From Planctomycetota bacterium (GTDB lineage: Bacteria > Planctomycetota > UBA1135): a DNA stretch of 64,000 nt. This document shows, piece after piece, positions 7,258-57,086 of the stretch. The notes beneath the pieces were generated by a model. It made no database searches. It was not told where the DNA came from and saw only the letters and a list, made by a program, of their open reading frames with translations. The DNA lies in NCBI GenBank assembly GCA_021776925.1, contig JAJFFB010000100.1, positions 35,894-99,893 on the forward strand. Reading direction: 5' to 3'. How positions within the stretch are numbered: the stretch's first letter is position 1; each line of letters opens with the position of its first letter. Made by a program: the position numbers and the translations under genes.

Positions 7258-7267
7258 GAACAGAGGA

Positions 7268-9753: not shown

Positions 9754-9837
9754 GCAGGGGCTCCTGTGCGCTCAGGCGGGTCCGGCCTATCACCGCGATC
9801 CCGACGACCACAACGGCCACTGGCCATTGACGTAAAA

Positions 9838-10024: not shown

Positions 10025-10160
10025 GAGCAGGTGTCCGCCTGACCGAGAATCGCCCCGCGGGCCGCAGGAAGTGCATGAAGCGACCGGTGCGGAAACCAGA
10101 CGGATTAGGGGCATCCTGCAAAAAAAAACGTGTGTTATCTTGAGGTTCCATCACAAAACC

Positions 10161-11579
10161 ATGCTGCGCCACCTGCCCCCACTGTTCCTCTTCTTAGTCC
10201 TGACTCCCCTCCTGCACGCCCAAGGGGATCGGGTTTACGCCGACCGCATTCCAGTCAAGATCGAGCCTGCATCCAACGGGCTGGCGTTCGACTCCGATCA
10301 CTCTGCGGTCGCCCTGGGTCGCAACGGCGACATGCTGGTGGTCTGGCACGCCAAAAATGCCGCCGGACAGGCCACCGAGATCCAGGCCGCCTATTTCACC
10401 TTCGAGGACCACAAGAATGGACCGCGCTGGGAACCGAGTGACACCATCGTCCTCGCCGGCCTGGACGCACAGGGCCGCCGTTGTCTGCGCCCAGACATCG
10501 TCCTCACCTACGATTCCTCCTCGCAGGATTTTGAAAAGGATGCTTTTGTCGTGGTCTGGGCGCGGGCACAGAACGGCACCGCCAACGGCAAGATTGAAGC
10601 TGCGCGAATCCAGGCCCCTTCCGGAAAGGGAAAGAGCCCGAAGGTCACTTTCAGCGATGGCCGCGCGGGCTTCCCACTGGACAACGATGTCGACACCAAC
10701 CTGGCCAATGCCACTCCCGACATCGCCTGGCACCCGTTGATGGGAAATGGCCGTTTCGGAGTGGTCTACAGCCATCTGCAAAGCGATGACCAGAACGGCC
10801 ACGCCGAAGTCACGGTGCGCTGGCGCGAGGTGCGACTACCCTCCTCCGGCAGTGCCAACGTGTTTATCGGAACCCCGCTGGCGACCGGAGTCAAACTGGA
10901 GGGGGCTCTCTACGACTTTGCCGGCGGCGCCGTCGCCCCCGATGCAGTGCTGCTGCCGAGCACAGGAACCAGCCTTAATCTGGTCCTTGGTTTCGAGGAA
11001 AGCACCCAGATCCGAGGGGTCCCAGGTGCTGGCTCGCATACCCGGATCAAGGGTTTCCACGTGATTCCGGGCGGCACACCAACCTTGTTGTCCGAGGGAC
11101 TGGTACCACCGAATCCGGGTGCGCAGGAAAACCTGGTGCGCCGGCCGATGCTGTCATGGAACCGGGTCCCGTCTAACCGCAATACGGTGCAACTGGCCGT
11201 CCACGTGGTCGACGGCGAAATCGGCGCGGTGCACAGGTCACGCTCCTACACCCTCCTCATGGGTAGCCAGAATCTGGTTCTGGATCCGTGGGTGTCCGGA
11301 TTCTCTAAACAGAGGGCCCCTGCAGTCGCCGCACTTTCCTCCTCCCACATCCTGGTCTTCCATGACGAGGGCATGATCAATTTTGCGTTCGGGAACTCGG
11401 GTGGTCTGCATGATGGCCCGGTGGATCTCGGCATCGGGGCCCTTCCCGCGATCGACCTGCTTGAGGGCGTCGGCCCCGGTGGCAGGGATCTCGTGGCCAT
11501 CGTCTCCCATGATCCGAGCGGCAACGGCGGGACCTCCAGCGGCCGCATCTGGGTGCGTCTGATTCTCGAGAATCTCTAG
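10161..11579 (+). CDS. secreted protein of unknown function, tandem paralogue A (repeated strand motifs suggest a beta-propeller-like fold)
   Basis: ORF 10071..11579. ATG at 10161 gives the signal peptide MLRHLPPLFLFLVLTPLLHAQ. About two-thirds identical by eye to the next gene over the first ~130 residues (GRNGDMLVVW, TEIQAAYFTF, GLDAQGRRCLRPD, AFVVVWARA.NGTANGKIE). Confidence 0.75.
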   Translation: MLRHLPPLFLFLVLTPLLHAQGDRVYADRIPVKIEPASNGLAFDSDHSAVALGRNGDMLVVWHAKNAAGQATEIQAAYFTFEDHKNGPRWEPSDTIVLAGLDAQGRRCLRPDIVLTYDSSSQDFEKDAFVVVWARAQNGTANGKIEAARIQAPSGKGKSPKVTFSDGRAGFPLDNDVDTNLANATPDIAWHPLMGNGRFGVVYSHLQSDDQNGHAEVTVRWREVRLPSSGSANVFIGTPLATGVKLEGALYDFAGGAVAPDAVLLPSTGTSLNLVLGFEESTQIRGVPGAGSHTRIKGFHVIPGGTPTLLSEGLVPPNPGAQENLVRRPMLSWNRVPSNRNTVQLAVHVVDGEIGAVHRSRSYTLLMGSQNLVLDPWVSGFSKQRAPAVAALSSSHILVFHDEGMINFAFGNSGGLHDGPVDLGIGALPAIDLLEGVGPGGRDLVAIVSHDPSGNGGTSSGRIWVRLILENL

Positions 11580-11646
11580 CAGAAGACCGTACAGCGGAAT
11601 GACTTTGTCCACGGCCTTTCATGAGAAGGCCGCTGTAGGCTGCTCC

Positions 11647-11668
11647 AATTTCCAGGTTTTAGGAAATT
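11647..11668. promoter_or_regulatory. 7-bp inverted repeat (AATTTCC-N8-GGAAATT) in an AT-rich intergenic spacer; candidate operator
   Basis: Read directly at 11647-11653 and 11662-11668. It lies in the unusually AT-rich 11640-11720 spacer, with a TACAAT hexamer at 11679-11684 upstream of the start at 11722. Confidence 0.25.
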
Positions 11669-11721
11669 TCAAATAGCATACAATTCAGATACATGGTATC
11701 TTTTTGAGTGCTTTTAGGGTC

Positions 11722-13131
11722 ATGATCCATCATCTGTCTCCCCTCCTGTTCAGCCTGTTTTCGGCTCCCCTCCTGTGCGCCCAGGCAGGTCCGGTCTATC
11801 CTGACCGGGTTCCGGTCGAGATCGAAGTGGCCCCTCAGGGCCTCCAATTTGACGCCGACCACACCGCCCTGGCCTTCGGCCGCAATGGTGACATGCTGGT
11901 GGTCTGGTCGGTCAAAGACTCGCTCGGCAAGTCCACTGAGATCCAGGCGGCCTATTTCACCTTCGTAGCCACCCCGGTACCGCGTTGGGAGCCAAGTGAA
12001 TCCGTCGTCCTTGGCGGCTTGGACGCCCAGGGGCGACGATGTCTTCGCCCCGATGTGGAGCTGACCTATGACCCTAGTTTCCCAGACCTTGACGCCTTCG
12101 TGGTGGTCTGGGCACGGGCCGAAAACGGGACCGCAAATGGCAAGATCGAATCCGCCCTCGTTCAGGCACCAACCAATCCGGGCCAACCGCCGGTCGTTTT
12201 ACATAGTGATGGTGTTTCCGGTTTCCCCCTTGATGACCAGGTCGACACCAACCTGACCAACGGGACTCCCGACATTGCCTGGCACCCAAAAATGGGATTG
12301 GGGCGCTTCGGGGTGGTCTACAGCCACCGCCAATCGGATGACTTCAACGGCCACGCCGAGATCACCGTGCGCTGGCGCGAAGCGGTATTACCAATCACAG
12401 GTCAGGCACAAATCCTGGCATTTGACCAACTCACCACTGGGGTAAAAGTGGAGGGAGCCCTCTACGGTTTTTCCGGTGGCGCGGTCAAACCTGATGCAGT
12501 CCTCATGCCGGCCAATTCCTCCAGTTTGAATCTGATCCTTGGTTTTGAGGAAAGCGCTGCCATCAACGGAACCCCAGGTGGGGGTGCCATGATTCGGGTG
12601 CAGGTCTACAAAGTGATTCCTGGCATCCAGCCTTCCTTGCGCTTCGAAACCGCCTTGGACCCTGATCCAGCGATTCAGGAGAACCTGTTACGTCGCCCGA
12701 TGCTGTCCTGGAACCGGGTTCCTTCCAATTCCGATACCGCGCAGCTGGCGATCCACGTGGTCAATGACGCGAGCGGCACCTTGCGCAAGGCCCATTCCTA
12801 TTCCATTCATATTGCGAATCAGACCATCGTCATGGATCCATGGGTCCCTGGTTTCAGGCAGCAAAAGGCCCCCACCGTCGCCGCCTTTTCCAACTCCCAT
12901 CTCCTGGTATTCCAGAACGGCACCAAACTCCAATACGCTCATGGGGACTCGGCCGGGCTGAGCGATGGCATCGTGGACCTAGGCAGCGGGAATATCCCTG
13001 CGATGGACATGCTTGAGGGTGTCTGGCCCGGGGGCAAAGACGTTGTCGCGATCTCCGCGTTCGATCCGAGCGCGGTCGTGGCCGGTGCGCCGCGCCGGAT
13101 CTGGGTGCGCCTCATCGTCGCCGACCTGTAG
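11722..13131 (+). CDS. secreted protein of unknown function, tandem paralogue B
   Basis: ORF 11704..13131 (TTG). ATG at 11722 gives MIHHLSPLLFSLFSAPLLCAQA. Collinear similarity to 10161..11579 through to the shared C-terminus RIWVRLI..L*. Confidence 0.75.
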   Translation: MIHHLSPLLFSLFSAPLLCAQAGPVYPDRVPVEIEVAPQGLQFDADHTALAFGRNGDMLVVWSVKDSLGKSTEIQAAYFTFVATPVPRWEPSESVVLGGLDAQGRRCLRPDVELTYDPSFPDLDAFVVVWARAENGTANGKIESALVQAPTNPGQPPVVLHSDGVSGFPLDDQVDTNLTNGTPDIAWHPKMGLGRFGVVYSHRQSDDFNGHAEITVRWREAVLPITGQAQILAFDQLTTGVKVEGALYGFSGGAVKPDAVLMPANSSSLNLILGFEESAAINGTPGGGAMIRVQVYKVIPGIQPSLRFETALDPDPAIQENLLRRPMLSWNRVPSNSDTAQLAIHVVNDASGTLRKAHSYSIHIANQTIVMDPWVPGFRQQKAPTVAAFSNSHLLVFQNGTKLQYAHGDSAGLSDGIVDLGSGNIPAMDMLEGVWPGGKDVVAISAFDPSAVVAGAPRRIWVRLIVADL

Positions 13132-14737: not shown

Positions 14738-14884
14738 GCCCCCAGGTTAGGGGGTTCCCCCTGCGCTGGATGCAGCAGATTGCCCCTGCCCCGGTCGGGC
14801 CAAAAAAAATGGGTCACCTGGCCGCCCGTTGACTCCGCTAAGGAGAAGCCTCAGGAACGAACCGCCTGCGGCCACCCTTCTTCC

Positions 14885-15901
14885 ATGCTGATCGTCACCT
14901 CTGTCCTGGCCGCAGCCCAGCTCCTAAGCCTTCCGCAAGACGCGTTGCAGCCCGCTCTGGCGCCGCGTTTTGCCGGGGTCTTCCGTCCCGGCCACGGCTT
15001 CCAGCCCTATCAACAGGGCTGGCGGACTTCCGCTGCGGAAGCCTATTCCGCCGGGGACCTGATGGCGTGGCAGGTGCTGCCTGGGGAGCAGCACCTGTTG
15101 GTTGAAGAGGGACGTATGCACGACGGCCGGGGCAGCGTGCAGGTGAACGCCGTGACCCTGCACTATGCCTCGAGCCGGGCGGATGAAAGCGGCGCGGGGG
15201 GCGAACTGCAACTCGCCCTTGAGGACCCGCGCAGCGGCGTCTGGAAGGAGTGGCGGCTCGCCGGTCTGCCGTTGGGAGGGACCGATGGCAGTGCTCGCGC
15301 GTGGACCGTGGTGGTCGATCTGCGCGGGGGGCATGAAATCGACCTGCCCGCCGGGGAAGTCTTCCGCTGGAGCGTGGCCACCGCGGACGCTGCCACCGGA
15401 CTGCTGCTGGCAATGGGTGGGCCGGGCGCCGACAACGCGCTCGACTGGCACGACCTCAGCAGCGGCACGCGGCTGGCGCGCGCACCCATCGGCATCGAAG
15501 GCGCCGCTCTCGCCCTGGAATTGCACGCCCTGCCAGCGGGCACGCGTGCGCTCTATCCGCAAGCCGGCCAAGCCATGCCCAGCCTGGCCTTGAGTTCGGA
15601 CCAGGTGGTCGCCGGCGATCTGGCGACCTGGCGCCTGGAACAGCCGCACGCGCAACGCAGCTACGCGCTGTTGATCTCGGCCGCGGCGGGGCTGGAGTCC
15701 ACCGGCGGCGGCATGCTGCTGTTGGACCGCTCGGCGCTGGTGGCGCGGCCGGTACTGATGCCATCTGGCGAGGTCACCCTGTCGATTCCACACCAGGCCG
15801 CCGGCCGCTGGTTCAGCCAGGCGGTGGAATTCGAAGGCCGCCTGGAGAGCGGAGTGTTCCGCGCGGTGTCCAACGCTTTGGAGCACGATCTGCGGCCTTG
15901 A
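14885..15901 (+). CDS. hypothetical exported protein
   Basis: ORF 14780..15901. ATG at 14885 gives the hydrophobic N-terminus MLIVTSVLAAAQLLS. No domain recognised. Confidence 0.5.
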   Translation: MLIVTSVLAAAQLLSLPQDALQPALAPRFAGVFRPGHGFQPYQQGWRTSAAEAYSAGDLMAWQVLPGEQHLLVEEGRMHDGRGSVQVNAVTLHYASSRADESGAGGELQLALEDPRSGVWKEWRLAGLPLGGTDGSARAWTVVVDLRGGHEIDLPAGEVFRWSVATADAATGLLLAMGGPGADNALDWHDLSSGTRLARAPIGIEGAALALELHALPAGTRALYPQAGQAMPSLALSSDQVVAGDLATWRLEQPHAQRSYALLISAAAGLESTGGGMLLLDRSALVARPVLMPSGEVTLSIPHQAAGRWFSQAVEFEGRLESGVFRAVSNALEHDLRP

Positions 15902-19899: not shown

Positions 19900-19960
19900 G
19901 GCATCATTCTAGGACTTTTGGCACAGTGGCAAAAGCGGACCAAAGACGCAAAGCCCGACC

Positions 19961-19988
19961 TTGCCGGCGATTGGGCGCTTGTTATGAT
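19961..19988 (+). promoter_or_regulatory. candidate sigma70-type promoter (TTGCCG-N16-TATGAT) upstream of the nusA leader
   Basis: Hexamers read at 19961-19966 and 19983-19988. Sequence pattern only. Confidence 0.3.
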
Positions 19989-20081
19989 ATGCGGCTCCTG
20001 AATCGCCTTCGGACGGTTCGCCGGCGGTTTCAGCGCCCCCGGTTCGGGAGCTCCGGTCCGCCGTGGCACACACGGTCAATC

Positions 20082-20111
20082 GGGTGTGCAGCGTGCTGCG
20101 CACCCTTTTTT
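20082..20111 (+). terminator. intrinsic-terminator-like hairpin in the nusA 5' leader
   Basis: 10-bp stem GGGTGTGCAG / CTGCGCACCC (one G-T wobble), 4-nt loop, then TTTTTT at 20106-20111. It lies 58 nt upstream of the nusA ATG. Confidence 0.55.
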
Positions 20112-20168
20112 GTTGGCCGGAGCGACCACAGGAGGCTGAAAACGCCCGTCAACCCTCCCCGAGAAATC

Positions 20169-21242
20169 ATGCGCAAAGAAGAAGTCCTTCGAATGATCGA
20201 CGCCATCCACCGCGAAAGGCAGGTGGACCGCGAGATCTTGTTCGCGGCCTTGGAAGAGGCTTTGAGCATGGCTACGCGCAAACGCATGGGGGTGGAAGAG
20301 GGTTTCGACGTGCACATCGACCGCCGCAACGGCACGATCTCGCTTGAGTTGCCCAATGGCGAGGTCGCCTTCCCCAGCGCCGAGGAACTGGGCCGCATCG
20401 CCGCCCAGACCACCAAGCAGGTCTTCATGCAGAAGATCCGCGAGGCCGAGCGCGACAAGGTCTTCGATCAGTACGAAGACCTGACCGGCACCGTCGTCGC
20501 CGCGGTGGTGCACAAAATCGAGGGCCCCAACATCATCCTGCTGCTGAACGGCAAGAACGAGGCGTTGCTGCCGCGTTCCGAGCGGGTCATGTCCGAGCGC
20601 CTGCACATCGGCGACCGCCTACGCGTGCTGATCAAAGAGGTGCGCAAAGAGGGCTCGCGCGTGGTCATCATCGCTTCGCGCCGCGACGAAGAATTCGTGC
20701 GCAAGCTGTTCGAGGTCGAGATCCCCGAGATCGGCGAAGAACTGGTGCGGGTGATGCGCGTGGCGCGCGACGCCGGCTACCGCTCCAAGGTCGCGGTCTA
20801 CTCGATGGACCCGCGCGTCGACGCGATCGGTTCGTGCCTCGGCGTGCGCGGCACCCGCATTCGCAACATCAACGACGAACTCGGCCAGGAAAAAATCGAC
20901 ATCATCGCGTGGAGCGACTCGCTCGAGGAATTGGTCCAGAACGCGTTGAAACCGGCCCGCGACATCGCCTTGGAACACATCTTCCCTGACGAAGACGCGA
21001 TGTCAGTGTTCGTGCTCGTCAGCGAGGAACAAAAGCCGCTGGCGATCGGCATGGGCGGGCGCAACGTGCGCCTGGCTTCGCAGATCGTTGGCTGGGAGAT
21101 CGAAATCAAGACTCCCGCCGAATACGAAGCCGAACTCCTCGCCGAAGGAAACTCCGGCGAAGGGACCCCGGTCGAGATCCCGCCGATTGACGGCGCGGAC
21201 GGACTGGAAACCGAACCAAATCCGGAGGGCCCGGAAGCCTGA
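20169..21242 (+). CDS. nusA: transcription termination/antitermination factor NusA (short form, no C-terminal acidic repeats)
   Basis: MRKEEVLRMIDAIHRERQVDREILFAALEEAL is a typical NusA N-terminus. S1 and KH regions follow (GVRGTRIRNINDELGQEKIDII, GMGGRNVRLASQIVGWEIEI). Located directly upstream of infB. Confidence 0.9.
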   Translation: MRKEEVLRMIDAIHRERQVDREILFAALEEALSMATRKRMGVEEGFDVHIDRRNGTISLELPNGEVAFPSAEELGRIAAQTTKQVFMQKIREAERDKVFDQYEDLTGTVVAAVVHKIEGPNIILLLNGKNEALLPRSERVMSERLHIGDRLRVLIKEVRKEGSRVVIIASRRDEEFVRKLFEVEIPEIGEELVRVMRVARDAGYRSKVAVYSMDPRVDAIGSCLGVRGTRIRNINDELGQEKIDIIAWSDSLEELVQNALKPARDIALEHIFPDEDAMSVFVLVSEEQKPLAIGMGGRNVRLASQIVGWEIEIKTPAEYEAELLAEGNSGEGTPVEIPPIDGADGLETEPNPEGPEA

Positions 21243-21262
21243 GTGCCCGCGGAGCTGCTGCA

Positions 21263-24115
21263 TTGAGCAAAGTCAAAGTCTTCACCCTGGCCAAACGATT
21301 CGGATACAAATCATCCGACTTCGTGGGGGTCTTGCGTGACATCGGTTTCCCGGTGTCTTCTTACCAGGCCTCCATCGAGGAGTGGGACGTCCCGGTCATC
21401 GAAGAGCGCCTGCGCAAAGGTGGTCTTCTGAATGCCACAGAGGACGACGCTGCCGAGGAAGGCGGTGGTGCCAAGGAAAATGGCGGCGAGGCTTCGGCGT
21501 GGGATCTGCTCAAGGCGCAGGCCACCGCAAACGCCGAGGCCGCTGAAGCCGAGGCAGCTGAAGCCGAGGCCGACCAGGATGTGGCCGAGGCTGACCTCAG
21601 CGAAGCCGAGCCCGAACCCGCAGCGACCGCCCCCATTGCCGAAGCCACCGAAGCTGAGGCCGCAGCCAAAGAAGTCGCCGTTGAAGAGCCTGCTGGCGAT
21701 GCGGCCGAAGCGCTGCCGCCCGCAGAGCCGGTGCCGACCGAGGCCGCTGCTGAGGCTGACCCGGCTGACCCGGTGGTGGCCGATCCAGCCCCCGCCGAAG
21801 CACTGGCCGCCGACGCCGCCAGCGCCGACGCCAGTGCAGCCCCCACCCCTGAAGGCGCCTCCGAGCCCGCCGAGCCCGCCGCCCCGGCTCCTAGCGGTGC
21901 TGCGGAGCCCGCCAGCGAGCCCACCGTGCAGGCTGGAGCCGAGCCGACCGCCGAATCCACCACCGAGCCCGGCACCGAGGTTCCTGCTGTGGCCGCTGCA
22001 GCCCAAGGCGAAGCCGCAGCAACACCGCCCGAGCAAAAAGAAGGCGGCGCCCGGAAACCGCGCAAAAAAGGCACCCCGACGCCCAAACCGCGCCGCGCCG
22101 CAACCAAGGTCGGCAAGATCGACCTCGCCGCGCTTGGCCTGATCAAGAGCCAGCACCAGGAAAAGAGGCGCTCCACCACCTTCTCCGACATCCGCGACCG
22201 GGTTGCCACCAACCGTCGCGAGCAGCGCACCCGCCAGCGCGAAACCATGCGCGCGCGGCGCCAGGGGCGCGTCGGGCCGAAGCACGTCTCGACGCTCGAA
22301 CGCAAAAAAGACGTCGTCCTCGATTCGCCGGTCACGGTCAAGAGTTTCTCCGTGGCCACCGGCATCTCGATCAACGACGTCATGCGCAAGCTGATGCAGA
22401 TGGGCATGATGGCCAGCATCAACGCGGTGCTCGAAGGCGAAATGGTCGAGCTGCTCGCCGAGGAGCTGGATCTCAGCATCCAGTACCGCGAAGAGGCCGA
22501 CATCGAGACCGAGCTGATGGCCGAGATCATGGCCTCGCGCAAGGCGCTCGACGAGTCCTCGATCATGCCGCGCGATCCGGTCATCGCCTTCCTCGGACAC
22601 GTCGACCACGGCAAGACCTCGCTGATCGACGCGATCCGCAAGACCCACATCGCCGACAAGGAATCGGGCGGCATCACCCAGCACATCGGCGCCTACCAGG
22701 TCAAGCTGCCCAGCGGTCAGGGCGTCACGGTGCTCGACACGCCGGGCCACGCAGCTTTCACCAGCATGCGCGCGCGCGGTGCCCAGACCACCGACATCGT
22801 GGTGCTGGTGGTCGCCGCCGACGACGGCGTCATGCCGCAGACCGAAGAGGCCGCCAACCACGCCCGCGCCGCCGGCGTGCCGGTGGTGGTGGCCATCAAC
22901 AAGGTCGACGCAACCGGCGCCAACCCGGAACAGGTCAAGTCGCAGCTCGCCGGCCTCGGCCTGCAGCCCGAGGACTGGGGTGGCGACGTCGGCATGGTCG
23001 AAGTCTCGGCGCTGCGCAAGCAGGGCGTGGAAGCGCTGCTCGAACGCGTGATGCTCGAGGCCGAAGTCCTCGACCTCCAAGCCCACGCCAAGGGCGACGC
23101 ACTTGGCACCATCATCGAGGCCAAGCTGGAGAAGGGCCGTGGCAAGATGATCACCGTGCTGGTCCAGGATGGCACCCTTAAACCGAAAGACGTGGTCCTC
23201 GCTGGGCCCACCTTCGGCAAGCTGCGCCTGATGTTCGATTCCAACGGCAAGGCGCTGAAGCAGGCCGGACCGTCGACCCCGGTCGAGATCTCCGGTCTCG
23301 AAGAACTGCCGCCGATCGGCGAGAAGTTCTACGTGGTCAAAGACGCCAAGGCGGCCAAGGCGGTCGCCGAAAAGCGCATGATGCACCGCACCGAGCTGGA
23401 CCGCGCGCGGCGGACCAAGGTTTCGATGCAGAACGTGTTCGAGAAGCTCGACGAGAGCAACGCCGAGCGTCTGCGTTTCGTCCTCAAGGGCGACGTGCAG
23501 GGTTCGGTCGAAGTCCTCAAGGCCACGCTCGAAGACATGAGCACCGAAGAGGTCATCGTCGACGTGGTGCACTCCGGCGTCGGCGCGATCAACGAGTCCG
23601 ACGTCACTTTGGCGCAGACCGCCGGCGGCGTGGTCATCGCCTTCCACGTGGCTCCCGACAACAAGGCGCGCGTCACCGCCGAGAAAGAAGGCATCGAGAT
23701 CCGTCGCTACGACGTCATCTACGACCTGATCGAAGACGTGCAGAAGGGCATCGAGGGCCTGCTCGCACCCGACCGCGTCGAAGAGGTGTGCGGCCACGCC
23801 AGCGTGCTCGAAGTGTTCCGCAGTTCGCGCTGGGGCACCATCGCCGGCTGCATGGTCGATTCCGGAGTGGTGCGGCGTTCCTGCAAGGCGCGCCTGATCC
23901 GCGACGGCAAGCCGATCTACACCGCCGCGCTGGCTTCGCTGCGGCGCTTCAAGGACGACGTGCGCGAAGTCACCGAAGGCACCGAATGCGGCCTCAAGCT
24001 GGAAGACTTCGAAGACATCAAAGCCGGCGACGAGCTGGAGTTCCTCGAGATCACCGAAAAGGCCCGCTCCCTGGAAGAGGCGCAGGCGAGCACTTCCGAT
24101 AAGTCCGGCGACTGA
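21263..24115 (+). CDS. infB: translation initiation factor IF-2
   Basis: TTG start. The N-terminal domain is MSKVKVFTLAKRFGYKSSDFV. G-domain motifs GHVDHGKTSLID, DTPGHAAF and NKVD are present. A long Ala/Glu/Pro-rich linker sits between them. Confidence 0.95.
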   Translation: MSKVKVFTLAKRFGYKSSDFVGVLRDIGFPVSSYQASIEEWDVPVIEERLRKGGLLNATEDDAAEEGGGAKENGGEASAWDLLKAQATANAEAAEAEAAEAEADQDVAEADLSEAEPEPAATAPIAEATEAEAAAKEVAVEEPAGDAAEALPPAEPVPTEAAAEADPADPVVADPAPAEALAADAASADASAAPTPEGASEPAEPAAPAPSGAAEPASEPTVQAGAEPTAESTTEPGTEVPAVAAAAQGEAAATPPEQKEGGARKPRKKGTPTPKPRRAATKVGKIDLAALGLIKSQHQEKRRSTTFSDIRDRVATNRREQRTRQRETMRARRQGRVGPKHVSTLERKKDVVLDSPVTVKSFSVATGISINDVMRKLMQMGMMASINAVLEGEMVELLAEELDLSIQYREEADIETELMAEIMASRKALDESSIMPRDPVIAFLGHVDHGKTSLIDAIRKTHIADKESGGITQHIGAYQVKLPSGQGVTVLDTPGHAAFTSMRARGAQTTDIVVLVVAADDGVMPQTEEAANHARAAGVPVVVAINKVDATGANPEQVKSQLAGLGLQPEDWGGDVGMVEVSALRKQGVEALLERVMLEAEVLDLQAHAKGDALGTIIEAKLEKGRGKMITVLVQDGTLKPKDVVLAGPTFGKLRLMFDSNGKALKQAGPSTPVEISGLEELPPIGEKFYVVKDAKAAKAVAEKRMMHRTELDRARRTKVSMQNVFEKLDESNAERLRFVLKGDVQGSVEVLKATLEDMSTEEVIVDVVHSGVGAINESDVTLAQTAGGVVIAFHVAPDNKARVTAEKEGIEIRRYDVIYDLIEDVQKGIEGLLAPDRVEEVCGHASVLEVFRSSRWGTIAGCMVDSGVVRRSCKARLIRDGKPIYTAALASLRRFKDDVREVTEGTECGLKLEDFEDIKAGDELEFLEITEKARSLEEAQASTSDKSGD

Positions 24116-24134
24116 GCGCCGGCACGCTGCTCCG

Positions 24135-24485
24135 ATGGCCAACGAACGCCGCCGCAAGCAGATCGCCCGCCGCGTGCAAGCGCGGCTGGCGCAGATCCTT
24201 CTGTATGAAATGAAGGATCCGCGCGCCTCCTTCCTCACCATCACCGAGGTCGAGATGAACCGCGACCTTTCGATTGCCAGGGTGCGCTGGTCGACGCTGG
24301 ATCCGTCTGCGCGCTCGCGCATTGCGCACATGCTTGAGCACGCCCATGGCTTCCTGCGCCGCGAGGTGGCGCAGGAGGTGCAGTTGCGCTCGGCGCCGCA
24401 GGTCGTTTTCGAGTACGACGAACGCATCGAGCGCGCCGATCGCATCGAATCGATCCTGCGCGACCTGCGGCCGAAAGATGACTGA
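24135..24485 (+). CDS. rbfA: ribosome-binding factor A
   Basis: 116 aa with RRVQARLAQILLYEMKDPR...LTITEVEMNRDLSIARV, in the conserved position after infB. Confidence 0.9.
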   Translation: MANERRRKQIARRVQARLAQILLYEMKDPRASFLTITEVEMNRDLSIARVRWSTLDPSARSRIAHMLEHAHGFLRREVAQEVQLRSAPQVVFEYDERIERADRIESILRDLRPKDD

Positions 24486-25212
24486 GGCGCCGCGCCGCTT
24501 GCGCCGGGCGGAAAGCGTCCTGCGCCAGCGCACCGGCCGCCTGCTGCTGGTGCTCGAGCGACCCGCCGACAACCACAACATCCAAGCGGTTCTGCGCACC
24601 GCCGAGGCCTACGGAATTCAACACGTCTGGGTGGTCGACCACGCCGTGCCGCCGCAGAAGATCAACAAATCGGTGACCAAGGGCAGCTATCTGTGGCTCA
24701 GTATGCGCCATTTCCAACGCCCGCAGGACTGCATCCAGGCCTTGCACGACGGCGGCTGGAGCATATGGAGCACGGATCTGTCGCCGGGCGCGGTGGCGGT
24801 CCATTCGCCCTCCGACCTGCTCCCCTTCCCGCAGCGCGTGGCCTTGGTGGTGGGGCGCGAATCCGACGGCGTCACCGAAGAAATGCTCGCCGCCAGCGAC
24901 CGCCGCCTATTCCTGCCGATGGCTGGATTCACCGAGAGTTTCAATCTGTCGGTAGCCACCGCCCTGGTGCTACAGCGCTGCTTCGACGCCTGCCCTGAGT
25001 TGCGCGGCGCGATGAGCGAGGACGAGCGCGCGCAAATCCGCCGCGAGTGGTATGAGCGGCTGGCCGGCTCGGCGCGCCACCTGCACGAATTCCAGCAGTG
25101 GCTCGACCAGCCGCCGCCGCCACTCGAAAGTCTGCGCCCGGCGGAAGAGTTCCGCCGCCCGCGCATTCCCAAGAAGATCCGCCGCCGTTTAGGGCTCGGC
25201 GGAGACGTGTAA
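24478..25212 (+). CDS. SpoU/TrmH-family RNA 2'-O-methyltransferase
   Basis: ATG at 24478 overlaps the rbfA 3' end by 8 nt. LVLERPADNHNIQAVLRTAEAYG and LVVGRESDGVTEEML...LPMAGFTESFNLSVATALVL are SPOUT-family motifs. Confidence 0.85.
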   Translation: MTEAPRRLRRAESVLRQRTGRLLLVLERPADNHNIQAVLRTAEAYGIQHVWVVDHAVPPQKINKSVTKGSYLWLSMRHFQRPQDCIQALHDGGWSIWSTDLSPGAVAVHSPSDLLPFPQRVALVVGRESDGVTEEMLAASDRRLFLPMAGFTESFNLSVATALVLQRCFDACPELRGAMSEDERAQIRREWYERLAGSARHLHEFQQWLDQPPPPLESLRPAEEFRRPRIPKKIRRRLGLGGDV

Positions 25213-50132: not shown

Positions 50133-51505
50133 AGCCGCAAACGCTGCGGCTGGAGGCGGCGGAGAGCCCATGGCGCGAGGCGTGGCGGCTGTCTCTGCCG
50201 GCCACGCTGTCCTTGCTGCTGCACGCGGGCTACCGAGTCAATGACCAGTACTGGATCGGGCCGCTCGGCCCCGCCGCACAGGCCGCCCTCGGCGTTACCT
50301 CTTTCCTGCTGATCCTGAATTTCGCCTTCATCGCGCTGGTGCAGTCGGGGACGCTGGCGCGCATTGCCCTGCACACCGGAGCGCGCGATGCCGAGGCGCG
50401 CCAGCGCTGCTTCCAGACCTCGCTGCGCTTGTCCTTCGCCTGCACCGTCGTCGTGGCGCTGGTCGGCTGGGCCACCACCCCCTTCTGGGTGCGCCTGCTC
50501 GGCGCCGAGGGCGAAGTGGCCGAACTCGCCCAGGCCTATCTCAAGCCGATCTACCTGACCCTGCCGTTGATCGCGGTCAAACCGTGGACAGATGGCGTCT
50601 TTCTTGGCATTGGCAACACCATGGTGCCGATGCTGCTGGCCGGCCTGGCGGTCGGACTCAACTTCGTCCTCAATCCGCTGCTGATTTTTGGCTGGGGCCC
50701 CGCACCCGAGATGGGCATCGCCGGCGCGGCGTGGGCGACCGGCATCTCGCGCGGCATCGCCGGCGGTCTCGGTTTGTGGATCCTGAACCGCGGTGCCGGC
50801 CTGCGCTGGCGTGGCTTGCCCTTCGATCGCCACGAGATGGCGCGCATCCTGCGCATCGGCACCCCGGTGGCCCTGACCCACGCCGCCTATGCGCTGGTCT
50901 TCGTCGGGGTGCTCAAGACCAGCGTGGCGCGCTTCGGGGAATCGGTGCAGGCCGGTCTCGGAGTGGCCTTCAATGGCATCGAATCGATCAGTTACTGCGG
51001 CTTGATGGGCCCGGCGATCGCCTGCTCTTCGATCGTCGGCCGGCGGCTGGGCGCACAAGACCACGCCGGCGCGCGCACCGCGGTCGGAGCCTGTCTGACC
51101 CTGTCGTTGTCGATCGCCTTGCTCGCCAGCTTGCTCTTCGGCTTGCTGCCGGAGCGACTGGTTTCCTTCTACAGCGATGACCCGACCGTGCTGCGCGAAG
51201 CGGCGCTGTATCTGGCGGTGGTCGCCTGGAGCCAGACCGCGACCTCGGCCGACTCGGTACTGCAGCAAGCCCTCGCCGGTGCCGGCCGCACCACGGTGAT
51301 GTCGTTGACCACCACCCTCGGCTTGAGCTTGCGCATACCACTGGCCTTCTTTCTCGCCCACTCCATGGCCTGGGGGCCGCATGGCATCTGGTGGGCGTTC
51401 AACCTGACCAACTGGCTCAAACTGGTCGCTATAGTCCTGGTCTTCCGCGCAGCCCGCATCACCACCCCCCCCACTCCACCCTCATGGCGGCCGTCCAACC
51501 CCTGA
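50129..51505 (+). CDS. MATE family efflux transporter
   Basis: GTG start overlapping the upstream stop (GTGA). About 12 predicted TM segments and a MATE-like N-terminal box (LSLPATLSLLLHAGYRVNDQYWIGPLG). Confidence 0.85.
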   Translation: MKPQTLRLEAAESPWREAWRLSLPATLSLLLHAGYRVNDQYWIGPLGPAAQAALGVTSFLLILNFAFIALVQSGTLARIALHTGARDAEARQRCFQTSLRLSFACTVVVALVGWATTPFWVRLLGAEGEVAELAQAYLKPIYLTLPLIAVKPWTDGVFLGIGNTMVPMLLAGLAVGLNFVLNPLLIFGWGPAPEMGIAGAAWATGISRGIAGGLGLWILNRGAGLRWRGLPFDRHEMARILRIGTPVALTHAAYALVFVGVLKTSVARFGESVQAGLGVAFNGIESISYCGLMGPAIACSSIVGRRLGAQDHAGARTAVGACLTLSLSIALLASLLFGLLPERLVSFYSDDPTVLREAALYLAVVAWSQTATSADSVLQQALAGAGRTTVMSLTTTLGLSLRIPLAFFLAHSMAWGPHGIWWAFNLTNWLKLVAIVLVFRAARITTPPTPPSWRPSNP

Positions 51506-51981
51506 TCGATCCCCAGGACTATCCACCGGACCAGGCGGTACTCGATACCGACAAGATCCGGCACTACCTTCCTCACCGTTACGAGTTCGCCCAGCTCACC
51601 TCCTTCCTCGGCTTCGATCACGATCGCATGCTGGGCGTGGGTTTTCGCAAGGCCGGCGAAGACGGCGAATTCTGGGCGCGCGGCCACATCCCTGGGCGGC
51701 CGATCTTTCCCGGAGTTCTATTGGTCGAAGCGATGGCCCACTCCGGCATGATCTACACCCATGCCTATCACGGCATGTACGAACATCATCCGTGGATCGG
51801 TTTCGCCGCGATCGACAAGGCGCGGTTCATGGACGTGGTCGAACCCGGCGAGGATCTGTGGCTGCCCGGCATTCTGACCAGAGTTGACGTGCGCCGCGGC
51901 TTCAACCGTTGGGAAGGGCAGGCGGTACGCGCCAACGGCCAGGTGGTGGCCACCGCCACGGTCACCGGCCTGGCCTTCTGA
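51484..51981 (+). CDS. FabA/FabZ-like hot-dog fold dehydratase
   Basis: ATG at 51484 overlaps the MATE gene by 22 nt. IRHYLPHRYEF and HIPGRPIFPGVLLVEAMAHSG match the FabZ active-site region (H..P..PGVL..EA.AQ). Confidence 0.75.
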   Translation: MAAVQPLIDPQDYPPDQAVLDTDKIRHYLPHRYEFAQLTSFLGFDHDRMLGVGFRKAGEDGEFWARGHIPGRPIFPGVLLVEAMAHSGMIYTHAYHGMYEHHPWIGFAAIDKARFMDVVEPGEDLWLPGILTRVDVRRGFNRWEGQAVRANGQVVATATVTGLAF

Positions 51982-52010: not shown

Positions 52011-52841
52011 TCAGGTTTCGACCGCAACGGCGCTTTCCTCTTCCGGAGGCAGGATCGCCATCACGTCCAGTTCCAGGCACTCGCAGGGGCTGCCGAGGAG
52101 TTGCGCGATCGAAGGACGGGTGCGCCCCTCATCGCCGGAGATGACTTCCTTGATATAGGTGCCGTGCTGGCTGCGGATGGTCACGCGCCAGCCGGGCGCT
52201 TCGGGAGTCGCCTGCAAAACCTCGATCCAGCGTTCGCGGTCGAGACGCGCGCGGCGATGCTCCACCCGGCTCGGGGTCGACTGCACCACGTCGATTCGCC
52301 CGGCCTGCACCCACCCTTGCAGCAGTTCGGCGGCACGCTCCTGGCCGGGACCATCCTCGGCGCCAAAACCGATCAGCGCGCGATACTCCTTGGGGCAGCG
52401 CGTTTCCTTGATCTCGACCACGCGGCGGCGGTTGGAATAGTGCAGGTCGAGAATCTCCAGCCGCCCCGGGTTGCGCCGGTTGACCTCGGCGGCGAACTCG
52501 TCGAGATCGACCACCGGCCGTTTGGCCTTGATCAGTTCCAGCACGAAGGGGCGGCCGTCGCCGAGCATGCGCACGTTCATGTCCTCGCGCCCGGCGCCGT
52601 GGAACTTGTTGCGCCGCGCCTTGAAACGCGGTAACGCCACCCAGGCGATCAGTTCCTGCACCGAATCACGGGTCAGCTTGCCGAAGCCCTCGCAGTGCTC
52701 ACAGCCGCGCCCCTTGCACTGCGGACAGTAAAAATAGGTTTGCGGCAGGTCGCGGCTCAGCTTGCGGTAGCGGCCTTCGATGTACACCTTGACCGCCGGC
52801 TGGGACGGCGGGATCTGGGCGGGTCGGGGGGAGTCGGGCAA
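52011..52841 (-). CDS. Pus10-like tRNA pseudouridine synthase catalytic domain (no THUMP domain)
   Basis: YIEGRYRKLSRDLPQTYFYCPQCKGRGCEHCEGFG (zinc ribbon), HGAGREDMNVRMLGDGRPFVLEL (catalytic Asp motif) and GTYIKEVISGDEGRTRPSI all match my recollection of conserved Pus10 blocks. TTG start at 52841, uncertain. Confidence 0.6.
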   Translation of the reverse strand: MPDSPRPAQIPPSQPAVKVYIEGRYRKLSRDLPQTYFYCPQCKGRGCEHCEGFGKLTRDSVQELIAWVALPRFKARRNKFHGAGREDMNVRMLGDGRPFVLELIKAKRPVVDLDEFAAEVNRRNPGRLEILDLHYSNRRRVVEIKETRCPKEYRALIGFGAEDGPGQERAAELLQGWVQAGRIDVVQSTPSRVEHRRARLDRERWIEVLQATPEAPGWRVTIRSQHGTYIKEVISGDEGRTRPSIAQLLGSPCECLELDVMAILPPEEESAVAVET

Positions 52842-52856
52842 CAGTAGAATGCGGCG

Positions 52857-53840
52857 GTGTGGCCGGAAATCTTCAGGTTGGAACTGGGCGGATTCTCGTT
52901 GCCCTTGCGGAGCTTCGGCTTCTTTGTGGCACTCGGTTTCCTGATCGGCGTGCAGGTCGCCGGACGGCTGTCACGGCGTTATGGCACCGACCCCGAAAAT
53001 GAGCTGCAGAAGGTACCGGAGGTCAGTTGGAGCGTTCTTCTGGGAGTGATCCTGGGCGCACGGCTGGCGTACGTACTGGTCAACATCGGCCATTTCTCCG
53101 CCCACCCGGTCGAGATCCTGAAGATCTGGGAAGGCGGCCTGGTGATGTACGGCGGGCTCATTTTAGCCCTGTTCATGGGCATCCGGAAGGCGCGCAAGCT
53201 GGGCATGAATGTGTGGCGCACCGCCGACTATTTCCTCGTCGCCGGCTTCCTCGGCCAGGCCATCGGGCGCCTCGGCTGCCTGTCGGTGGGTGACGACTAC
53301 GGCCGTCCGCTTGAGCGGGCCGCCGACGGCAGCGCGCCGTGGTTTGCGATTACCTTCCCGGATCCACTCCCCTTCGGCTCTGCCTTCCCGCCCGAGCTGG
53401 CTGGTATCCCGGTCCATCCGACCCAGCTGTACATGGCGGCCAAGGCGCTGCTGCTATTCGTCTTCGGCCTGTGGCTGCTGCGGCGCAAGCGCTTCGACGG
53501 CCAGGTCATGGCGCTGCTGATGATGGGCTACGCCGGCCTGCGCTTCCTCATCGAGTACTTCCGCTACGACGCCGAAGCGCGCGGCGGTATCTTCCGCGCC
53601 GGCGCCAGCCCGGCCGACACCCACGTGCGCCTGCACGAGCTCGGCGTCGCCACCGCCGACGGCCGCATCACCGACTTTGCCGCCTACCGGCGGCTGATCG
53701 CCGAAGGCGCCGAGGGCATCCATCCGCAGCTGCTCTTGTCGACCTCGCAGATGGCGGCGATCGCCACCTTCGTGGTGGCGCTGTTAATTTACCGGCGTCT
53801 GCGCGGTCAGCAGAGCCCGCCCCTACCCACGGACGGCTAG
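52857..53840 (+). CDS. lgt: prolipoprotein diacylglyceryl transferase
   Basis: GTG start. Polytopic membrane protein with GGLVMYGGLI, GQAIGRLGC and HPTQLY motifs. Confidence 0.9.
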   Translation: MWPEIFRLELGGFSLPLRSFGFFVALGFLIGVQVAGRLSRRYGTDPENELQKVPEVSWSVLLGVILGARLAYVLVNIGHFSAHPVEILKIWEGGLVMYGGLILALFMGIRKARKLGMNVWRTADYFLVAGFLGQAIGRLGCLSVGDDYGRPLERAADGSAPWFAITFPDPLPFGSAFPPELAGIPVHPTQLYMAAKALLLFVFGLWLLRRKRFDGQVMALLMMGYAGLRFLIEYFRYDAEARGGIFRAGASPADTHVRLHELGVATADGRITDFAAYRRLIAEGAEGIHPQLLLSTSQMAAIATFVVALLIYRRLRGQQSPPLPTDG

Positions 53841-54797
53841 ATGGTCTTCCTCGCCGGCGTCGATGAAGCGGGTTACGGCCCCTTCGTCGGGCCCTTCACG
53901 GTCGGCTTCAGTCTCTTCCGCGTGCCGGAATTCGACACCGATCTGTGGCCGTTGCTGAACGGTCCGGTGGTGCGCAAGGCCGCGCGCGGGGATCCGCGCG
54001 TGCGCGTCGACGACTCCAAACGGGTGCATCAGGGGCGGCTCGGCCGCGGCCGCCTTGAGCGCAGCGTCGCCGCCTTCCGCGAGGTGCTGCACCCTGGCGA
54101 AGACGACGTGCACGCGTGGCTCGAAGCGGCGCCGGCCGGACCGGGTAGCTGGGTGGCGCGCTCTCCGTGGTTGAGCCAGCTCAGCGGCCGGCTGTGCCCC
54201 TCGGTCAGCCGCGAACGCACGCGCCTCGACGCCGCAGCAATCGGCCGCGCGCTACGCATCGGCGGCTGCACCCTCGACGCCTTCGGCAGTCGCGCGGTTC
54301 CGGCCGGCGAATGGAACGACTGGATCGAACGCACCCGCAACAAGGGCGAAACCCTCTTCCATCTGACCATGGAAGTCGTGCGTCATCTGCTCGAGCGCAC
54401 CGGCGATGCGCCGTTGCGCATCGAGCTCGACCGCCACGGCGGCCGCCGTTCCTATGGCAGCCGTTTGCAGAAAGCGCTGCAACCGCAACGCCTGATCCGC
54501 CACGGCGAAACCGGCGGCGGTTCGACCTACACCCTGGTGTTCGCCGATCGCGAGGTGCAACTGCGCTTTTCAGAGGGCGCCGATCAGAAATTCTTCTGCG
54601 TGTCCCTCGCTTCCCTGGCCGCCAAACAGACACGTGAGCGCTGCATGGATGCCTTCAACCAATGGTGGCTGGAGCGCCTTCCCCAGGTCGCTGCCACCAA
54701 GGGTTATGGCGTCGACGGCAAGCGCTGGCTGGCGGAAACCGCCGAACTCGCCGCCGCCTTCGGCGTCGACGAGGCAGTTCTGCGCAGAACTCGTTGA
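53841..54797 (+). CDS. rnhB: ribonuclease HII-family protein with extended C-terminal region
   Basis: GVDEAGYGPFVGPF (DEAG motif), VDDSKRV and SLASLAAKQTRERCM. At 318 aa it is about 100 aa longer than typical RNase HII. Confidence 0.65.
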   Translation: MVFLAGVDEAGYGPFVGPFTVGFSLFRVPEFDTDLWPLLNGPVVRKAARGDPRVRVDDSKRVHQGRLGRGRLERSVAAFREVLHPGEDDVHAWLEAAPAGPGSWVARSPWLSQLSGRLCPSVSRERTRLDAAAIGRALRIGGCTLDAFGSRAVPAGEWNDWIERTRNKGETLFHLTMEVVRHLLERTGDAPLRIELDRHGGRRSYGSRLQKALQPQRLIRHGETGGGSTYTLVFADREVQLRFSEGADQKFFCVSLASLAAKQTRERCMDAFNQWWLERLPQVAATKGYGVDGKRWLAETAELAAAFGVDEAVLRRTR

Positions 54798-54859
54798 GTT
54801 GCGCGATCCTGCTGGCCGAAGATAGAGTGCCCCCGTCCGGTGCCGCCGGGCCACCCCAG

Positions 54860-54931
54860 ATGCGCTCCTCCTTCCACTTCTACGCCTACGCGGGCCGCTT
54901 TTACGGCTACCGCGGGCGGGTGGTTGGCTAG
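54860..54931 (+). CDS. candidate aromatic-rich leader peptide (23 aa: [23 protein letters not shown])
   Basis: ATG at 54860, TAG at 54929-54931. It has 3 Phe and 4 Tyr codons. It lies 22 nt upstream of a terminator hairpin and 80 nt upstream of the CM-PDT-DAHPS gene. Confidence 0.55.
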
Positions 54932-54953
54932 GCAGCGCGATTTGCCGAATCCA

Positions 54954-54980
54954 CCACCCGCCGACTGCGGGTGGTTTTTT
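54954..54980 (+). terminator. intrinsic terminator / attenuator hairpin upstream of the pheA-aroF fusion
   Basis: 8-bp GC-rich stem CCACCCGC (54954-54961) / GCGGGTGG (54967-54974), 5-nt loop, then TTTTTT at 54975-54980. An exact second copy of GCGGGTGG at 54916-54923 could pair with the 5' arm instead. Confidence 0.65.
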
Positions 54981-55010
54981 CATTCCATCCGCTCCGCACC
55001 CAGCAGAGGA

Positions 55011-57086
55011 ATGAAAGACTCCGACCCACTCGAAGATCCGCGCCCGCAGATCGACGGCAGCGACCCGCTCGAAGATCCGCGCCTGCAGATCGACGGCATC
55101 GATCAGGCCCTGATCGACCTGATCGCGCAGCGCATGAACGCGGTGCGTTCGATCGCCGAGATCAAGGACGCCGACCCGCACCAGCCGCTGCGCGATGAGT
55201 CGCGCGAACGCCAGGTGCACCAGACCTGGCGCCGGCGTGGTGCCGCAGCCGGTCTATCCTCCTACTTCCTCGGCCGCATCCTGCGCGAGATTGTGCACTA
55301 CTCGCGGCGCGATCAGGAACGGCGTCTGCGCGGTTTGGACCCAGCTGCCGGGGTCGGCGACAAAGTGGTCGGATTTCAAGGCATCGTCGGCGCCCACAGC
55401 CAGCTGGCGGTGGCCAAGCTCTACACCTCGCGCTGCGGGGTGACCCCGCGCAGCCGCGGCTACGCCGGTTTCGAGGAAGTGGTCGAGGCTCTGGAGCGCG
55501 GCGAGATCGACGCCGGCCTGCTGCCGATCGAGAATACCACCGCCGGCAGCATCAACGAGGTCTACACCCTGCTCGGCAAGCGCCGCCTGCATATCGTCGA
55601 CGAAGAGTACTGGGAGGTGCGTCACGTTCTCGCCGCCAAGCACGCAATTCCGGTCGACGAGCTGCGCGTGATCCGTTCGCACCCGGTGGCGCTGCGCCAG
55701 TGCGGCCACTTCCTCAGCCGGCTGCGCGAAGTCGAGGTCGAGCACGCCTTCGATACCGCCGGCGCGGCGCGCGAAATCGCCAGCGGCGACAGCCTGACCA
55801 CCGCCGCGATCTGTTCCGAAGAAGCGGCGCGCGAATACGGCCTCGAGGTGCTGGCGCGCGATCTCGCCGATCAGCCCGACAACATCACCCGCTTCGTGCT
55901 GGTGCGGCTGCAAGCCGAATCTCCCGACCCGCGCCTGCGCTGCCGCACTTCGATGGTGCTGACCACCGATCACCGCCAGGGTTCGCTGGCGCGCTGCCTC
56001 GACATCTTTTCCGAACGCCGCATCAATCTGTGCAAGCTGGAGAGCAGGCCGCAGCCGGAAACGCCCTGGCAGTACCTCTTCTACCTCGACATCGAGGGAC
56101 GCCTGGCGCACCCGCAGGTGGCTGCCGCGATCGAGGAGGTGCGCAGCCACTGCAACTCCTTGCGCATCCTCGGCTGCTACCCGATGCGCAACCTGGTCGA
56201 AGCCCTGCCGACCGAGGAAACTGAACCGGCTGCAGAGGCGCCCGCGGGTGGCAAGGTGGTCGCCGAACCCGCCGCGGCGGCGCGGCCCCATCCGCGCCGC
56301 ATCGCGGTGGGAACGGCGCTGTTCGGACCCGATCAATTCACCGTGATCGCGGGGCCGTGTGCAGTGGAAAGCCGTTCCCAGATCCTGCAAGGAGCAGAGA
56401 TGGTGCGCGCCGCCGGCGCCACGCTGCTGCGCGGCGGAGCCTTCAAACCGCGCTCCTCTCCTTACTCCTTCCAGGGACTCGGCTTCGAGGGCCTCGAACT
56501 GCTGCACCAGGCCGGCCGCGCCTACGAACTGCCTATAGTCACCGAGGTCCTGCGCCCGGAAGACGTCGCCGCGGTGGCCGCAAAGGCCGACATGCTCCAG
56601 GTCGGGGCGCGCAACATGCAGAACTTCGCCCTGCTGCAGGAACTCGGGCGCATCGATCGTCCGGTGCTGCTCAAACGCGGCATGAGCGCGACCTTGGACG
56701 AGATGCTGCTGGCCGCCGAGTACATCATGGCCGGGGGCAACCACGAGATCATCCTGTGCGAACGCGGCATCCGTACTTTCGAGCCGGCCACGCGCGCCAC
56801 CCTCGACCTCAGCGCGGTGCCGGTGTTGAAGGAACGCAGCCCACTGCCGGTGATCGTCGACCCCTCACACGCCGCCGGGCGGCGCGAATTGGTGATTCCT
56901 CTGGCGCTGGCCGCGGCCGCTGCCGGCGCCGACGGCCTGATCGTCGAGTGTCACCCCGACCCGGCGGCGGCGCGCTGTGACAAAGAGCAGGCGCTCACCG
57001 GCGAGGACCTGCAGCGCTTGATGCGCGCGCTGGTGCCGATCCTGGAAGGAGCAGGCAAACGCCCGGGGCAGCGCGGCGTGGCCTGA
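55011..57086 (+). CDS. fused chorismate mutase / prephenate dehydratase / ACT domain / DAHP synthase (type I-beta)
   Basis: ATG at 55011 with AGAGGA upstream. CM helix: [29 protein letters not shown]: [15 protein letters not shown]...[18 protein letters not shown]: [40 protein letters not shown]: [45 protein letters not shown]. Confidence 0.85.
55023..55100. repeat. 39-nt in-frame tandem duplication (2 copies, 3 mismatches)
   Basis: 55023-55061 and 55062-55100 encode [13 protein letters not shown] / [13 protein letters not shown] at the start of the chorismate mutase domain. Confidence 0.9.

Follow-up and report, generated by a model that had tools for sequence, protein, structure and literature searches.

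We examined a 64,000-nucleotide stretch of DNA, referred to here as the window, from a Planctomycetota bacterium (GTDB lineage Bacteria; Planctomycetota; UBA1135). It comprises positions 35,894 to 99,893 of the forward strand of contig JAJFFB010000100.1 in GenBank assembly GCA_021776925.1. A reverse-strand gene in the window, pus10, lies head-to-head with lgt and encodes a protein of the Pus10 family of pseudouridine synthases that has the complete catalytic domain without the N-terminal zinc-ribbon and THUMP half. The two genes and the space between them are arranged as follows.

52011..52841 (-): coding sequence of the THUMP-less pus10 (276 amino acids plus stop codon), with TTG 52841 favoured as start
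52787 (-): GTG start of pus10 in the public gene call, giving 258 amino acids
52842-52856: 15 nucleotides between the start codons of pus10 (TTG 52841, -) and lgt (GTG 52857, +)
52857..53840 (+): lgt (prolipoprotein diacylglyceryl transferase), divergent from pus10, a bacterial marker and conserved neighbour

Gene coordinates and start codon

The 276-amino acid translation of the open reading frame (ORF) agrees with that of an earlier note on this DNA, which had been made from the sequence alone, and contains all the blocks quoted there as typical of Pus10 (YIEGRYRKLSRDLPQT, CPQCKGRGCEHC, HGAGREDMNVRMLGDGRPF and GTYIKEVISGDEGRTRPS). The GC content of the three codon positions (0.70/0.47/0.83) is like that of the neighbouring genes. 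The gap of 15 nucleotides to the divergent lgt that had been reported is real, and this spacing is kept in close relatives.

The earlier note had regarded both the TTG start and the promoter as uncertain. The start is now supported by comparison with close relatives (L007-L012), which keep the TTG-encoded N-terminus “LPE/D”, some of them having no other start codon. Because these relatives also share the spacing to the antisense lgt start, TTG 52841 appears better supported than GTG 52787. A further in-frame stretch upstream, FRPH.RIL.LPE, is conserved in relatives; read on the other strand, it is the beginning of lgt, with the start codon and the N-terminus. Neither a sigma-70-like promoter nor an intrinsic terminator was detected in scans around pus10. 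With start codons only 15 nucleotides apart, each gene would have its promoter within the other, or else the transcripts would be leaderless. No RNA-seq run with the pus10 locus was found; the runs that hold it are DNA biofilm metagenomes.

Family assignment and conserved residues

Profile, structure and residue tests all agree in confirming the protein as a complete Pus10 catalytic domain, as the earlier note had proposed. The Pfam family PF21238 (Pus10_C) matches residues 20-263 over model positions 1-231 of 232 (E 1.9e-59; 201.5 bits, cut-off 27), and the NCBIfam Pus10 equivalog TIGR01213 reaches 257.3 bits where 200 are required, with only model positions 161-401 of 402, the C-terminal 60%, aligned. 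Both profiles are thus above their cut-offs, and the best profile is not that of another family. No profile match to the TruB family (PF01509/TIGR00431) was found in the Pfam and NCBIfam scans. A weak match to the Pfam family DUF7895 (E 0.008), which covers just a cluster of cysteines, was set aside.

Human PUS10 (PDB 2v9k) was the only solved structure reached by sequence (E 2.9e-28). In this alignment, the catalytic Asp of the human enzyme faces D87 of the HGAGRED motif, and the GTYIKE motif aligns as well. An AlphaFold2 model, for which 30 relatives were used, reached a predicted local distance difference test score (pLDDT) of 87 and a predicted template modelling score (pTM) of 0.81. Its top match in Foldseek was again 2v9k, with an E-value of 1.5e-22, a template modelling (TM) score of 0.75, a root-mean-square deviation of 2.3 Å and 32% identity over 253 columns. 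TruA, Pus3, Cbf5 and TruB rank well below human PUS10 and are superfamily-level matches only. The superposition that had been suggested as a check was on archaeal Pus10; the model superposes on the human catalytic domain, which speaks for the Pus10 fold, the match not being an archaeal structure. Forefinger and thumb loops can be seen in the model, the pLDDT being lower (67-76) in the forefinger region.

Residues involved in Pus10 function have been described by Joardar et al. in the enzyme of Methanocaldococcus jannaschii (MjPus10). They include the catalytic Asp275, Arg273, Lys413, which is salt-bridged to the catalytic Asp, Tyr339, which packs on the target ribose and is required for pseudouridine (Psi) formation at position 54 (Psi54), Ile412, and Leu440, which is essential for activity (PMC3753934). 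The same study defined two forefinger segments, ffl1 (Cys227-Arg231) and ffl2 (Cys238-Val249), and a thumb “hook” formed by His376-Arg377 (PMC3753934). Their presumed counterparts in the present protein are listed below; the correspondence to MjPus10 (Mj) was deduced from spacing and motifs, the Mj sequence itself not having been aligned.

52692..52727 (-): forefinger-loop cysteine cluster C39-x2-C42-x4-C47-x2-C50, with the spacing of MjPus10 ffl1/ffl2 from Cys227 (C39) and Cys238 (C50)
52560..52601 (-): catalytic motif HGAGREDMNVRMLG, with R85 (Mj Arg273) and, at 52581-52583, the catalytic D87 (Mj Asp275, human Asp344)
52383..52385 (-): Y153 in KEYRAL (Mj Tyr339)
52242..52268 (-): thumb loop RVEHRRARL, with the hook H195-R196 (Mj His376-Arg377)
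52146..52163 (-): GTYIKE motif, with I230 and K231 (Mj Ile412 and Lys413)
52062..52070 (-): L258-D259-V260, with L258 (Mj Leu440)

We counted the conservation of these residues in 120 relatives, which differ by up to ~45% overall. R85, D87, Y153, H195, R196 and the four cysteines C39, C42, C47 and C50 are found in all 120. K231 and L258 occur in 119, the exception being one truncated sequence, and Y229 is likewise invariant apart from one truncated sequence, while position 230 is either Ile or Val. R85-E-D87 forms the R-x-D motif that aligns to the GRED motif of human PUS10, so that the catalytic Asp named in the earlier note is borne out by both alignment and conservation. The invariance of the catalytic core argues for an active enzyme. 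At the position of Mj Asp277, the protein has N89 (codon 52575-52577); this residue is Asp in 81 of the relatives and Asn in 39. Partial activity is retained in the D277A mutant of MjPus10 (PMC3753934).

The four cysteines probably form a zinc knuckle. They are invariant in all 22 sequences of an alignment in which short and full-length Pus10 proteins were mixed, and human PUS10 has an 11-residue gap exactly at CPQCKGRGCEHC. The CxxC-x4-CxxC ribbon pointed out in the earlier note is therefore present, but since it is also invariant in full-length archaeal Pus10 it represents the normal archaeal forefinger loop and is not peculiar to this copy. Full-length archaeal sequences share with this protein the offsets from the catalytic Asp, with the first Cys at -48, the fourth Cys at -37 and the thumb His at about +104 to +108.

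Absence of the N-terminal domain

The N-terminal zinc-ribbon/THUMP domain (PF22023, PF02926) is absent from the 276-amino acid protein, and positions 1-160 of TIGR01213 are unmatched. What precedes the catalytic domain is a short tail.

52788..52841 (-): N-terminal tail, amino acids 1-18, rich in Pro, Ser, Ala and Gln, of low complexity and of variable length in relatives; pLDDT of 61 in the first block of the model

As only these 18 residues lie upstream of the domain, followed by the antisense lgt, there is no room for the missing half. We also considered a split gene with a separate THUMP or zinc domain nearby. A profile of the N-terminal domain, built from 162 archaeal sequences and recovering 122 in a positive control, found no match in the six-frame ORFs of the window and related loci, which excludes a split gene for the local neighbourhood. 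The lack of a THUMP domain stated in the earlier note was thus upheld by each of these observations.

The accessory domain also appears to vary within Archaea. A 244-amino acid Pus10 without the N-terminal domain (P0210; L089 1876-2610) lies in an archaeal context with genes for S19e, RNase P Rpr2 and diphthamide synthase, and in many archaeal relatives the N-terminal part is just 66-125 residues long. A small second group of THUMP-less proteins (P0232, P0295 and P0353; 260-263 amino acids) carries the same Cys cluster, as does P0210. P0295 is found in a bacterial context, with genes for FliG and a sigma-70 factor, one gene from that for tRNA-guanine transglycosylase (TGT). Two loci of this second bacterial lineage encode a THUMP-less Pus10 of 260 amino acids.

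L087, 8001-8783: THUMP-less Pus10 of the second bacterial lineage
L088, 1979-2761: THUMP-less Pus10 of the second bacterial lineage

The three proteins of this group are nearest to full-length Pus10 of Thermoplasmata (~53% identity) and joined the Planctomycetota clade in none of 100 bootstraps, the second lineage having acquired its gene independently. With two bacterial lineages involved, loss of the domain after entry into bacteria appears to have happened at least twice. In the Planctomycetota, the N-terminal domain would have been lost at or after the transfer, or would already have been reduced in the donor.

Bacterial context, distribution and origin

The other genes of the window include an RNase HII-like gene, a FabA/FabZ-like gene, and genes for a MatE transporter, ATP sulfurylase, elongation factor G (EF-G) and an S1-domain protein, as well as nusA, infB, rbfA, cysS, a heptosyltransferase gene, a Kdo-kinase-like gene, and genes for Lon and a peptidase of family S49. 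No tRNA genes or Rfam matches were found in the window. Two genes next to the pus10-lgt pair were noted for their own features.

53841-54797 (+): RNase HII-like ORF of 318 amino acids, right after lgt, with weak split matches at its N- and C-terminal ends and a long insert between them
51391-51981 (+): FabA/FabZ-like hotdog protein, convergent with pus10 (29 nucleotides between the stop codons) and below the FabZ equivalog cut-offs

The true start of the FabA/FabZ-like gene is probably later than the one listed, because the latter overlaps the MatE gene. Elsewhere in the window, a 748-amino acid ORF (54840-57086, +) with chorismate mutase, prephenate dehydratase and DAHP synthase domains looks like a three-enzyme fusion for aromatic amino acid synthesis. 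Large ORFs at 5059-13131 (+) and 14780-15901 (+), encoding 732, 618, 230, 502, 475 and 373 amino acids, have no Pfam match at E 1e-5, and some of them show a gene-like codon bias.

A protein database search returned 4992 homologues, and the best 120 of these were inspected. All are 239-339 amino acids long and have Pus10_C only, and where a source is named it is a metagenome-assembled genome (MAG) of Planctomycetota. Many of these 120 are labelled “tRNA pseudouridine(54/55) synthase Pus10” by NCBI and JGI. When one genome per GTDB species was scanned, a relative of pus10 was present in at least 582 species genomes; the best 80 loci, nearly all from Planctomycetota MAGs of marine, lake, groundwater and engineered habitats, were compared for synteny. 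Conserved neighbours among these 80 loci are lgt (68), the RNase HII-like gene (67) and the FabZ-like gene (70). This arrangement holds even where the neighbours share only 30-45% identity, and it recurs on contigs of up to 3.2 Mb. Four biofilm metagenome runs also contain the locus, three of them with 0.76-0.97 of the sampled words and the fourth with 0.41; extension of the window's contig yielded only 3.8-kb Logan contigs.

The contig is bacterial and not chimeric, and contamination is excluded. The earlier note had placed a Pus10 in a bacterium and had named an archaeal or chimeric origin of the contig as the finding that would speak against it. Its claim stands, given the presence of lgt, nusA-infB-rbfA, the heptosyltransferase gene and EF-G on the contig, its lipopolysaccharide genes and sigma-type context, and the synteny kept in 67-70 of the 80 loci. 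The conserved lgt/FabZ-like synteny also indicates that pus10 is old and vertically inherited in this lineage.

An exhaustive search over 1.84 billion cluster representatives gave 2361 matches. After a few representatives of the Planctomycetota type, the next best are proteins of 320-460 amino acids with 41-46% identity, which are aligned from about residue 70-200 onward and so have N-terminal domains. The nearest outside relatives that could be labelled are archaeal, belonging to Candidatus Diapherotrites and to MAGs of unclassified archaea, and one outside relative sits among exosome, proteasome, SBDS and Nop genes, an archaeal context. In neighbour-joining trees of the catalytic domains, the Planctomycetota-type clade is monophyletic in 100 of 100 bootstraps. 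Since the nearest outside relatives are archaeal or lie in archaeal gene contexts, one ancient transfer from Archaea to Bacteria would be the simplest reading. The sister group of the clade is unstable in the bootstraps, which counts against this reading, and for that reason we claim no donor lineage. The phylogenetic check of a horizontal origin envisaged in the earlier note was favourable with respect to the clade and its archaeal outsiders and gave no stable sister group.

The truB position

In many bacteria, the nusA-infB-rbfA operon continues with truB. The corresponding part of the window is occupied as follows.

19926..24482 (+): nusA-infB-rbfA
24454..25212 (+): SpoU-family (TrmH-like) RNA 2'-O-methyltransferase gene, after rbfA in the usual place of truB; start approximate; followed by the convergent cysS

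We searched the window and the 80 related loci by tblastn with Escherichia coli TruB, RbfA, InfB, NusA, RpsO and PNPase as queries. The nusA-infB-rbfA genes were recovered in the window and in related loci. TruB had no match in the window, by tblastn and by Pfam scans of about 40 ORFs comprising most of the larger ones, or in 1.3 Mb of related loci searched by tblastn only. The junction of rbfA and the SpoU gene, with overlapping stop and start codons, recurs in relatives (L083-L086) in which RbfA identity is 60-70%. Some RbfA matches were on contigs equal in length to contigs with Pus10. In two outgroup contexts on short contigs (P0348 and P0349), rbfA is followed by a gene for a DHH protein or RNase PH.

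That truB does not follow rbfA in this lineage, where it would usually stand, makes its functional replacement probable, and suggests that Pus10 may have taken over the role of TruB, as in Archaea. The best NCBIfam match of the SpoU methyltransferase is TrmH, which forms 2'-O-methylguanosine at position 18 (Gm18), with 94 bits, below the cut-off. In the tRNA elbow, G18 pairs with Psi55. Because of this pairing, a link of the methyltransferase to modification of the T-loop and D-loop is conceivable.

Predicted function and alternative explanations

We consider it likely that the protein is an active, stand-alone single-domain Pus10 that forms Psi55, and possibly Psi54, in the T-loop of tRNA, that it is of archaeal origin and has been inherited vertically next to lgt, and that it probably replaces TruB. 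The catalytic domain would grip the T stem-loop between forefinger and thumb, and the target uridine would be flipped out. D87 would then catalyse C-glycoside isomerisation in the manner known from other pseudouridine synthases. For recognition the T-arm alone would be enough, and U55, possibly together with U54, would be isomerised. The ancestor of a large Planctomycetota clade would have taken up the gene from an archaeon, the gene being passed on vertically beside lgt ever since, with TruB probably functionally replaced.

Work on the archaeal enzymes makes such a T-loop enzyme plausible. Full-length MjPus10 modifies a 17-nucleotide T stem-loop (PMC3753934), and mutations of its N-terminal cysteines lower only Psi54 formation (PMC3753934, PMC9957541). 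As the short substrate suffices and these mutants are affected in Psi54 only, the catalytic domain could act by itself. The occurrence of THUMP-less Pus10 on an archaeal contig and in a second bacterial lineage was also counted in favour of the THUMP domain being dispensable. Two determinants distinguish the Psi54-competent MjPus10 from the Psi55-only Pus10 of Pyrococcus furiosus (PfuPus10), namely a forefinger loop of full size and a thumb with the His-Arg hook (PMC3753934). Both are present here, so that Psi54 activity may be retained.

Three points weigh against our reading, in addition to the unstable sister group. Mj Asp277 is described as a residue that every Pus10 shares, and its counterpart here is Asn89. 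A truB gene may be present in another part of the genome, perhaps next to ribF or rpsO, and the window contains neither of these two genes. The activity of a THUMP-less Pus10 is a prediction from sequence, no assay of an isolated catalytic domain being reported in the Pus10 literature examined. A stronger form of the same reading, which we offer only tentatively, is that the Planctomycetota clade is without TruB, and perhaps without TrmA/TrmFO, and that THUMP-less Pus10 makes both Psi55 and Psi54 to give an archaeal-style T-loop. The loss of the N-terminal domain in two independent bacterial lineages would then signify that the catalytic domain alone is a sufficient, minimal T-loop pseudouridine synthase.

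The enzyme could instead be active beside TruB in a specialised role, forming only Psi54 in some or all tRNAs or modifying a T-loop-like site in rRNA, tmRNA or mRNA. All the features associated with Psi54 formation in MjPus10 are present (forefinger loop, His-Arg hook and the equivalents of Tyr339 and Leu440; PMC3753934), human cytoplasmic PUS10 makes Psi54 alongside TRUB1 (PMC9957541), and the absence of TruB was seen at one operon position and in the sequence examined only. Yet rbfA lacks truB behind it throughout the lineage, nothing was found that points to a non-tRNA target, and no MjPus10 mutant has Psi54 without Psi55 (PMC3753934), so that archaeal-type enzymes do not by default make Psi54 only. 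We regard such a specialised role as rather unlikely.

A protein that is catalytically dead and serves in RNA binding or as a tRNA chaperone is much less probable, and so is a gene of archaeal origin that was transferred, lost its N-terminal half and is now decaying. The loss of a whole domain and the Asn at the Asp277 position could be taken as signs of decay, and non-catalytic roles of human nuclear PUS10 are known (PMC9957541), but the catalytic core is invariant in all complete sequences among the 120 relatives. The reading frame is intact, GC content at third codon positions is gene-like, and length and synteny are kept over at least 582 species. Archaeal contamination or a chimeric assembly, which might be suspected from the archaeal affinity of the nearest relatives outside the clade, has next to no probability. 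Only 15 nucleotides separate the start of the gene from lgt, which is specific to bacteria, and nusA-infB-rbfA, lipopolysaccharide genes and EF-G lie on the same contig. The GC content and codon-position bias of the gene match those of its neighbours. The same arrangement is moreover found in dozens of MAGs from different studies, on contigs of up to 3.2 Mb, and the recovery of sampled words from the biofilm runs (0.76-0.97 in three, 0.41 in the fourth) likewise tells against an artefact. The evidence as a whole leaves an active single-domain Pus10 acting on the T-loop as our preferred explanation.

Significance and comparison with known systems

Reviews published in 2017, 2021 and August 2025 describe Pus10 as absent from Bacteria. 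A bacterial Pus10 that is stably inherited without the THUMP-containing domain and found in at least 582 species genomes contradicts these statements. The family assignment itself is not new, because annotation pipelines already name these proteins Pus10; the gap lies in recognition and experiment, not in annotation. Full-text searches found no literature linking Pus10 with Planctomycetes/Planctomycetota or with horizontal transfer in bacteria. What is new is the large bacterial clade with Pus10, its THUMP-less architecture, and a likely link to the vacant truB position.

If TruB has been replaced, an archaeal enzyme would have displaced a nearly universal bacterial enzyme of tRNA modification, and the clade would amount to a natural experiment showing that T-loop recognition requires no more of Pus10 than its catalytic domain. 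The Planctomycetota clade is also predicted to carry Psi54, perhaps, in place of 5-methyluridine at position 54 (m5U54). A small (~30 kDa) and probably soluble Pus10 could furthermore be of use in obtaining an RNA-bound structure, which the family still lacks.

Among known systems, archaeal Pus10 (TIGR01213, COG1258; for example from M. jannaschii and P. furiosus) is similar in its catalytic domain, with 41-46% identity to archaeal MAG proteins, and shares the R-x-D motif, the core of Lys, Tyr, Ile and Leu residues, the four-Cys forefinger loop and the His-Arg thumb hook. It differs in having an N-terminal zinc-ribbon and THUMP-containing domain of ~150-200 amino acids, which the bacterial protein lacks, and in having Asp277 (in Mj) where the latter has Asn89. 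Human PUS10 has a large N-terminal accessory domain and lacks the 11-residue Cys cluster, the bacterial protein being the opposite on both counts. TruB has in common with it the fold of the pseudouridine synthase superfamily, a thumb loop and the presumed product Psi55, but belongs to a different family (Foldseek TM-score ~0.37-0.45, 11-13% identity) in which there is no forefinger loop and a C-terminal PUA domain is present.

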